The notes: generated by a model from the letters alone, not told the origin. A DNA stretch of 64,000 nucleotides from an uncultured Verrucomicrobiae bacterium (GCA_963818965.1 CAWFUG010000008.1:96001-160000), one strand, 5' to 3'. Counted from the first letter of the stretch, positions 12,328 through 13,788 are shown. Translations and numbers: made by a program.

Positions 12328-13788
12328 ATGTTAGTAACAAATTCTTTAATTCATCGCCCTTTTCCCACATTCTTAGAGAGCCCCTCTCAAGTCTCTAAAG
12401 AGAGCAAGAAGCTCTTGCGTCTTGTCGAACTGAATGCCGCTTTAGGTAACAGGAGCAGTGCTCTTCAGGCTCGTGCAGCGCAACGCCTATACGACGCAGC
12501 AGTGACTGTTGTCTCAGAGCAACTCAAAGCACTCTCAGAAACTTCCCCAGAAAAAATCAACCTAAACGAAGCCAAACTCTCTTTGAAAACCACCCTCGAG
12601 CGCGAGCTTGGAGAGCGCTATCTCCCCTACCTCAAGGACATCTTATACGATTTAGACGACGCCCAAGATGTAGCTAAAATCATAAAGTGTTTCCACCGCT
12701 TGCTCAAAGATAAAAATGCCATCCCCAGCTCCCCTGTAAAAAAATCGGATAAGGGGGTCAATGGCCCAACGCTCCTCGTCAATCATGCACATCCTTCAGG
12801 GTACAAGTCCTATGTCATCAAATGGACGAAATGGAATGAGCTTTACTCCAACCACATTTTCGGTGTTTTTTCCCGTGACATCCTAGAGGACTTTCAGAAA
12901 GTGAGTTTTCTCGCTCCTCAAGCCTCGGGATTCGATTCCTTCGAAGCTCTTTACGAAAGACCAGATGGTGTCCGCTCTAGCATGCCAATAGAGATGTCTG
13001 AACAAATCATCGATCGATTGGTTTCCATCGCTCAAATCAGCTCTTCTTCCAAAACCTACGACGCTGGTTTCGTCCTCTTTTCTGAGAGAATCAATGGAGA
13101 AAATCTCTCCGACTTCGTCCTGACAAAATATGGACGTCTCTCTTCTCCTCAAAAAGAGGCATTATTCCAAAGAATTGCAGAGCTCGGGATGCTCGATTTA
13201 CTCTTAGGAAACATGGATCGCTTTATTCAGATCGAGTTTGGTTCGAATGAAGAGATCGGCTCCCAAGAGGAAGATACCTATCATCTAGAAACCTTCGAAG
13301 CCAATTTGGGTAACTGTATTGTCTTCTGTCCCCCCGATCCCGAATCTCCCCACGCAACGCCGCTTCTTTACGCGATAGACAATGGGATCGATCCCCGTTT
13401 AATTGAAGACATAGAGCATAGGGAAGCCTATCTCGTATTTCTGAATGGATTGTTTACCGATCCTGAAAAAATGGAAGACCTCTTGGTAGAAAACCTCATT
13501 AACTCTTGCAGTAGAGCAATCGCTACGTGTCGCGAACACGAGGCCCCAGCTTTCCCGGTAAAGGACCTTGAATCTAAAATAACGATCTTTCAAGAAGAGG
13601 TCAGGACGCTGGGACGCGAGCCTTTTCGCAGAGGATTGCAAACGATGCGCGCGCAATTGAAGGAATCCATCATCCCTCGATCACAAGCCCCCGAGAGCGA
13701 ACTACGTCAGTATCTTTTAAAAAATGAGCAAGAGATGATGCTTGAGGCAATCTTAGAGAGATTTGCCCTTTTTACAAACCGCTTGTAA
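12328..13788 (+). CDS. Putative atypical kinase (actin-fragmin kinase / PI3-4-kinase-like motifs), candidate effector
   Basis: YVIKW (Lys), WNELYS (Glu), LDLLLGNMDRF...NLGN (catalytic loop) and YAIDNG (metal-binding) occur in the expected order. Confidence 0.65.
   Translation: MLVTNSLIHRPFPTFLESPSQVSKESKKLLRLVELNAALGNRSSALQARAAQRLYDAAVTVVSEQLKALSETSPEKINLNEAKLSLKTTLERELGERYLPYLKDILYDLDDAQDVAKIIKCFHRLLKDKNAIPSSPVKKSDKGVNGPTLLVNHAHPSGYKSYVIKWTKWNELYSNHIFGVFSRDILEDFQKVSFLAPQASGFDSFEALYERPDGVRSSMPIEMSEQIIDRLVSIAQISSSSKTYDAGFVLFSERINGENLSDFVLTKYGRLSSPQKEALFQRIAELGMLDLLLGNMDRFIQIEFGSNEEIGSQEEDTYHLETFEANLGNCIVFCPPDPESPHATPLLYAIDNGIDPRLIEDIEHREAYLVFLNGLFTDPEKMEDLLVENLINSCSRAIATCREHEAPAFPVKDLESKITIFQEEVRTLGREPFRRGLQTMRAQLKESIIPRSQAPESELRQYLLKNEQEMMLEAILERFALFTNRL

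Follow-up and report, generated by a model that had tools for sequence, protein, structure and literature searches.

A chlamydial protein family with a predicted kinase fold related to actin-fragmin kinase

The kinase gene and its predicted catalytic motifs

The window analyzed here is a 64,000-nucleotide stretch of DNA from an uncultured bacterium labelled Verrucomicrobiae (GCA_963818965.1 CAWFUG010000008.1:96001-160000), and its source is an environmental, chlamydia-like, obligate intracellular organism. The subject is one gene of the window: a single open reading frame (ORF) whose 486-residue product is predicted to be a kinase related to actin-fragmin kinase (AFK). A sequence-only reading had singled out this gene as an orphan with catalytic motifs of the AFK and phosphoinositide (PI) kinase type, and the ORF listing and translation bore out the ORF and every motif quoted in that reading. 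The gene, the predicted parts of its product and the features nearby are collected in Table 1.

Table 1. The kinase gene, predicted motifs and regions of its product, and neighboring features (positions counted from the first nucleotide of the window)
Feature	Position	Strand	Remarks
AFK-like kinase gene	12328..13788	+	Single ORF, ATG start, 486 aa, stop codon included
Glycine-rich loop GVNGPT, G143-V-N-G146-P-T148	12754..12771	+	Precedes strand 148-155
VIKWTKWNE: VIKW strand with putative ATP-anchoring Lys K165, start of C-helix with partner Glu E171	12814..12840	+	Strand 158-166, helix 169-189
Catalytic-loop entry DLLLGNMDR (D290, N295, D297, R298; D-xxxx-N-x-D-R)	13195..13221	+	Aligned to AFK; D297 presumed catalytic Asp
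Acidic insertion, residues 299-325, 27 aa, within the catalytic loop	13222..13302	+	Modelled as a small strand-helix-strand excursion
NLGN, N326-L-G-N329	13303..13314	+	Aligned to AFK NLDN; N329 presumed Mg-binding, closes the catalytic loop
AIDNG with D351	13372..13386	+	DFG counterpart (putative metal-binding Asp); aligned to AFK P-I-D-S
N-terminal region, residues 1-135	12328..12732	+	Five long helices (19-131); first ~10 residues Ser/Thr/Pro-rich, low confidence
C-terminal all-helical subdomain, residues 357-486	13396..13785	+	From secondary structure of the model
Sigma-70-like promoter match TTGAAA, 18 nt spacer, TAGAAT, with TG	12118..12147	+	~180 nt 5' of the kinase start codon
199-aa orphan ORF	13801..14400	+	Begins 12 nt past the kinase stop codon
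Terminator-like hairpin, 18-pair stem then T run	14457..14500	+	First strong one 3' of the kinase, also past the 199-aa ORF

The description of the gene as an orphan did not hold. An exhaustive HMMER scan with the window protein, made over 1.84 billion cluster representatives (clusters at 50% identity), found at least 181 relatives at E<=1e-3, with 140 at E<=1e-10 and 60 at E<=1e-30. From the 150 relatives listed, an alignment of 115 was assembled, which is called A2; the 35 left out were short fragments, proteins of much greater length or matches in multiple stretches. The columns of A2 average 14% identity, and against this background K165, E171, D290, R298, N329, I350 and D351 are each present in 115/115 sequences. 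D297 is found in 113, with Glu in the remaining two. N326 and N352 are kept in 114/115 each and the two glycines of the glycine-rich loop in 113/115 (G143) and 112/115 (G146).

The putative catalytic motifs are far beyond chance, and the complete set of catalytic Lys, Glu, Asp, Asn and Asp that characterizes the AFK family is present in the window protein. Judged by their positions in the structural model and the alignment, these residues would be equivalent to the following residues of PKA: K165 to K72, E171 to E91, D297 to D166, N329 to N171 and D351 to D184. Between R298 and N326, the sequence-only reading had seen an acidic insert of about 25 residues. This stretch (FIQIEF...ETFEA) is 27 residues long, contains eight Asp or Glu and no Lys or Arg, and spans 14-33 residues across the 115 relatives.

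Curated collections and smaller searches returned little for the same protein. The best Pfam match was RasGEF_N_2, which is irrelevant (E 0.091), and no accessory domain, Kelch included, was matched in Pfam at E<=1. NCBIfam gave 0 families, PADLOC gave 0 matches, and a single-sequence phmmer search of the PDB returned only a designed protein (E 0.028). In a word-indexed protein search, the single sequence found six relatives, one of them labelled Parachlamydiales; the A2 profile found eight proteins, query included; and the profile of a second alignment, A3, defined below, found six. No eukaryotic relative was among the proteins found in these three word-indexed searches, and the sole product name in the sources, for A2-type and A3 proteins alike, is "hypothetical protein".

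Predicted fold and relationship to actin-fragmin kinase

An AlphaFold2 model of the window protein was built with A2 as the alignment and has a pLDDT of 91.9 and a pTM of 0.91, with only residues 1-3 below 50. Behind the N-terminal helices, strands dominate the N-lobe (residues 137-166), and a long C-helix spans residues 169-189; a section of mixed structure then leads to the helical C-terminal subdomain. In the model, this is a two-lobed kinase fold whose nearest solved relative is AFK. A Foldseek search of the PDB, a check that the sequence-only reading had proposed, returned the catalytic domain of Physarum AFK (1cja_A) as the only match at E<=1e-3 (7.6e-6, probability 1.00), with PI4KIIα lower. 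Foldseek gave a TM by target of 0.55 and 15% identity, and the structural match to 1CJA covers model residues 10..483. Ranks 2-50 are all kinases and include Vps34, JAK2 JH2, methylthioribose kinase and PI4KIIα. The second-tier fold-match values are 10.8 and 10.7 for PI4KIIα, 10.6 for both HipA and CtkA, 9.9 for PI4KIIIβ, 9.8 for PI3Kγ and 8.0 for MavQ.

Further support for a relationship to AFK came from sequence profiles. When the A2 profile was compared to the PDB, 1cja_A was found at E 1.8e-5 (27 bits), and the runner-up, at E 0.031, was an unrelated apolipoprotein coiled coil. The alignment to 1cja_A pairs LD....N.DR, the insert, N..N and ID. Here, the family consensus LDlllGnlDRl...eaNLGNvM...yAIDNg is aligned to AFK up to ...VPIDSK, with the gap placed exactly at the longer family insert. 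According to Scheeff and Bourne (PMC1261164), an insertion after the Arg that follows the catalytic Asp, and before the metal-binding Asn, is a feature of AFK, and a crossing-loop hydrogen bond uses that Arg only in AFK and PI3K. As D297-R298 of the window protein is followed by an insertion and then by N326-L-G-N329, the protein shares this derived character of AFK. The insert between DR and N, called AFK-like in the sequence-only reading, indeed aligns to the nine-residue insert of AFK. That reading's wider interpretation was supported in part: its AFK-like kinase agrees with the A2 profile, the predicted fold and catalytic motifs that are near-invariant in 115 homologs. HopBF1, also named in that reading, was absent from the matches in every library searched. 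An AFK-like kinase fold, and homology to AFK, are almost certain.

The Pfam model of AFK, PF09192, responds to this family at the margin. Sub-threshold matches of 16.3-19.4 bits were found in 3 of 61 scanned relatives (PF00454 in 1 of 61), and a per-genome scan found four strong kinase-family members at 16.2-16.8 bits. Over 401 genomes of the phylum, PF09192 gave matches in 25 at E<=0.01 and above the curated cut-off in 10, and none of 14 control genomes responded. The A2 profile, too, matches several of these places weakly, G255:C12, G087:C61 and G176:C1 being examples.

Six PF09192-positive chlamydial proteins were used to make alignment A3. These proteins contain VVK...E, AAADLLLYYxDRLPxIGxGNLANxMI and AVAIDQ, with an insert of AFK length, and scores of this lineage on PF09192 reach 52.6 bits (for example, G240:C14:282421-283152). 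Comparison of A2 to A3 by hhalign gave a probability of 98.35% and an E of 1.1e-14, with the Gly-rich loop at one end of the 153 aligned columns and the catalytic loop at the other. Since the A2 family and the PF09192-positive A3 proteins align in this way, the chlamydiae hold at least two AFK-type lineages. Of these, the more divergent, long-insert lineage is that of the window protein. The family is a sister family of AFK, lying outside PF09192 as that model is currently drawn.

The PF09192-positive places have features of their own. Pairs of matches separated by 1-2 kb, in either relative orientation, are found at G240:C14:282421-285305, G336:C1:979661-982283 and G368:C142:8659-10867, and further pairs at the same spacing occur at G282:C56:596-2892 and G255:C12:185675-187909. 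In G240, the PF09192-positive proteins are ~7-10 kb from a member of the window kinase family. A3-type proteins are also annotated in metagenome-assembled genomes (MAGs) labelled Verrucomicrobia.

Distribution and genomic setting

The A2 profile found the family in 57/400 scored genomes of the phylum, in 52/334 good-quality genomes and in 33/212 genera. All matches fall within the window's own family (22/89) or order, and two sizeable families, f19 and f20, had no A2 match (0/23 and 0/29 genomes, respectively). Nine loci came from MAGs, six of which are labelled Parachlamydiales, Chlamydiota or Chlamydiae, one Verrucomicrobia and two "uncultured bacterium". Multiplication of the gene is seen in several places: four adjacent copies in G291, two in G253, a tandem pair at locus L010 and five matches in G349. 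In three of the four adjacent copies of G291 (G291:C6:20393-26967), the search reports in-frame stops; some of these copies may be decaying or, alternatively, the stops may sit at match ends.

In the window, the genes upstream of the kinase encode a malic enzyme, a homolog of NTP/NDP exchange transporters, an HD-domain protein, an IMPDH/GMP-reductase-like protein and a GT2 glycosyltransferase, and an alpha/beta hydrolase is encoded downstream. Between the glycosyltransferase and the hydrolase are three unnamed ORFs in a stretch of lower G+C (0.44 vs 0.48-0.50). A genome of the same genus, G001, conserves both flanks, with protein identities of 64% for the GT2 glycosyltransferase and 56% for the hydrolase (L019, G001:C42:3500-10658; L020, G001:C172:1-9700). 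The genes beside these flanks differ; among them are genes for a histidine phosphatase, for two M48 peptidases and for a Gln_deamidase_2-domain protein (PF18626, E 7e-8). Having the same flanks and different adjoining genes, the kinase sits in a species-variable segment, which resembles a hot-spot where accessory genes vary. In the first 30 kb of 11 related loci, the kinase alone resembles any window ORF, and the neighborhood is not conserved. Consequently, these loci suggest no operon partner, chaperone or antitoxin.

The ORF that follows the kinase is probably co-transcribed with it and has a putative link to it. Its 199-residue product is acidic, Pro/Thr-rich and contains a run of six Thr. 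The peptide PPVRRKLT(Y/F) occurs in it twice, encoded at 14104-14130 and 14332-14358, with a 23-nt identical stretch underlying both copies. We take R-R-K-L-T-F/Y to be reminiscent of a basophilic kinase site or of an RVxF-type phosphatase docking motif. A search for relatives in 91 genomes of the window's family found the ORF in the window's own genome alone, and there was no match in Pfam, NCBIfam or PADLOC. A transposon or repeat origin was considered for it and, the exact 23-nt repeat notwithstanding, was unsupported by the repeat search. The promoter-type match upstream of the kinase is one of 7 such sites, compared to 6.1 expected in shuffles; it is a match to consensus only and hence weak.

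Two other observations concern the surroundings. The lower-G+C block has as its third unnamed gene a 467-aa ORF at 14753-16156 (+), without a family match in Pfam, NCBIfam or PADLOC. At 58001-62000 of the window, AT skew is high (0.25 and 0.18), compared to absolute values <0.09 elsewhere.

Proposed function and comparison with known systems

With fair probability, the window protein is a Ser/Thr protein kinase of the AFK type that is active and that the bacterium probably exports to its host; the leading guess for its substrate is a cytoskeletal subunit. The parts of this proposal differ in strength. Given the residues it retains, the protein is very likely to be an active phosphotransferase, and a protein rather than a lipid is its likely substrate. 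A cytoskeletal target is suggested by analogy and is doubtful; the guess is made because both characterized AFK-type kinases act on actin or alpha-tubulin. Actin is phosphorylated by AFK (PMC1261164), and alpha-tubulin, at Thr349, by the AFK-like domain found in PHS1 of plants (PMC8783414). In the proposed mechanism, ATP would be held between the lobes and anchored through K165 and E171, and Mg2+ would be bound by N329 and D351. A Ser/Thr hydroxyl of the protein substrate, once activated by D297, would then receive the gamma-phosphate. A platform for the substrate may be provided by the acidic insertion, enlarged in this protein, together with the helical C-terminal subdomain, as it is by the corresponding parts of AFK.

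Delivery to the eukaryotic host cell is slightly favored. The highest 19-residue Kyte-Doolittle mean of the window protein is 0.96, which makes a membrane segment or signal peptide unlikely, and values >1.6 occur in only 4/115 relatives. Over their first 24 residues, family members are enriched in Ser (13.8%), Thr (7.7%) and Pro (7.6%), compared to 8.1, 4.8 and 4.2% overall, and depleted in charged residues. The window's genome contains a gene for an export gate of the FHIPEP (SctV/FlhA) type, which scores 735 bits. Elsewhere in the window, ORF 7393-8667 (-) matches the NTP/NDP exchange transporter superfamily (TIGR00769, E 2.7e-9) in its C-terminal residues 332-415 only, which fits an energy-parasitic intracellular lifestyle. 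From the lack of a Sec signal or membrane segment, the species-variable locus and an obligate intracellular lifestyle with a type III export gate, we infer export to the host. The effector-like traits, namely patchy distribution, tandem arrays, a variable locus, the N-terminus and FHIPEP, are circumstantial.

Several points weigh against an exported and active AFK-type protein kinase. Neither PF09192 (cut-off 24 bits) nor PF00454 matches the window protein at E<=1, and PF09192 gave no match at E<=10 in a scan of the window's own genome. As PF09192 is blind to the protein, family membership rests on profile, profile-profile and fold evidence. The insertion, three times the length of that in AFK, could alter the catalytic loop. 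With respect to export, the composition of the N-terminus points only weakly to type III secretion, FHIPEP may be part of a flagellar-type apparatus, and neither a chaperone nor a conserved partner gene was found in the 11 related loci. The one same-genus genome searched, G001 (~89% complete), has no family match, so the kinase is dispensable for that lineage. Finally, the choice of a protein substrate is questioned by lipid kinases, which are the nearest relatives of AFK (PMC1261164). PI kinases, PI4KIIα among them, fill the second structural tier, and PI3K/PI4K and LepB_N clusters are included in the language-model look-alikes of the window protein. All three observations would favor an effector that phosphorylates phosphoinositides or other lipids and remodels the membrane of the bacterial inclusion, like PI4KIIα or the Legionella proteins LepB and MavQ. 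With AFK as the closest match in both profile and fold, such an activity is considered unlikely.

A kinase that stays in the cytoplasm and acts on a bacterial target, either as a growth-arrest toxin similar to HipA or CtkA or as a regulatory or small-molecule kinase, is improbable. Here, a HipB-like or other conserved partner gene is lacking from the 11 related loci, no PADLOC or NCBIfam model matches, and the closest relatives of known function are eukaryotic kinases of the cytoskeleton. In addition, patchy distribution, tandem multiplication and a species-variable locus are unusual for housekeeping regulators. Finally, the fold could support a different chemistry (AMPylation by SelO and glutamylation by SidJ are examples), or it could serve as a non-catalytic scaffold. 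Several bacterial effectors with a kinase fold have proved to be non-kinases (10.1101/2021.04.13.439722), and the catalytic-loop insertion of the window protein is unusually long. However, the canonical phosphotransfer residues are kept throughout the 115 sequences (D297 in 113), they are laid out as in AFK, for which Thr kinase activity is proven, and Pfam showed no additional domain, making this alternative very improbable.

If the AFK-type kinase activity is real, a new type of kinase would be added to the effector candidates of chlamydiae. In PMC1261164, PMC1420674 and PMC8783414, AFK-type kinases are treated as rare and eukaryotic, occurring in slime moulds, ciliates, some holozoans and, as PHS1, in plants. 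A full-text search of a limited literature collection returned no description of chlamydial AFK-like kinases or of effector kinases from Parachlamydiales, only unrelated mentions. The family keeps every predicted catalytic residue and the catalytic-loop insertion of AFK and is invisible to the Pfam model. It supplies a hypothesis open to bench tests, phosphorylation of host actin or tubulin, and prokaryotic sequences that could root the relationship between AFK, PHS1 and PI kinases.

Amoebae are a habitat of chlamydiae, and genes were exchanged between chlamydiae and the ancestors of plants. On this background a larger scheme can be imagined, quite unlikely as it stands: environmental chlamydiae would inject at least two AFK-type lineages into protist hosts, where actin or tubulin would be phosphorylated and polymerization blocked, in a bacterial copy of a host cytoskeleton switch. 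The scatter of AFK and PHS1 over slime moulds, ciliates, holozoans and green plants could then result from transfer to or from chlamydiae. Proof of a host cytoskeletal substrate, or of a history of inter-domain transfer, would make the family far more significant.

Among known systems, the HipA/HipT toxins and Helicobacter pylori CtkA are ones from which the window protein differs by having no HipA family match and, in the 11 loci, no antitoxin-type neighbor. The Legionella lipid kinases MavQ and LepB belong to different families, far more distant than AFK, and, unlike the window protein, have proven secretion and lipid substrates. Type II PI 4-kinase (PI4KIIα, PDB 4HND/4PLA; PF00454) is neither a Pfam model match nor the closest fold match. 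It has a Cys-rich palmitoylation insertion, CCPCC, in its N-lobe (PMC3974213), whereas the window protein is without any Cys-Cys pair.

Two other groups are of the AFK type. The A3 proteins come from the same phylum and share the VVK...E, DLLL..DR, N..N and AID motifs. They differ in their short insert (DR-LPxIGxG-NLAN), in having I-D-Q instead of I-D-N-G, and in scoring on PF09192. PHS1 of plants and green algae has an AFK-type atypical kinase domain with a widened Asp-to-Asn spacing; the catalytic residues of the Arabidopsis protein are K187, D309 and N324 (PMC8783414). Its spacing is 15, compared to 32 in the window protein (D297 to N329), and PHS1 is eukaryotic, with its kinase domain embedded in a MAP-kinase-phosphatase-like protein, unlike that of the window protein.

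The best match in both sequence profile and fold is Physarum polycephalum AFK (PDB 1CJA, PF09192). Identity between the two is 15-16%, and the insertion of the window protein is 27 residues (14-33 in the family) compared to 9 in AFK. Kelch repeats are present in Physarum AFK, and the window protein has an extra N-terminal helical region of ~130 residues and comes from a bacterium. Common to both are the Lys/Glu/Asp-Arg/Asn/Asp set, the Arg after the presumed catalytic Asp, the insertion in the catalytic loop and the helical C-terminal subdomain.
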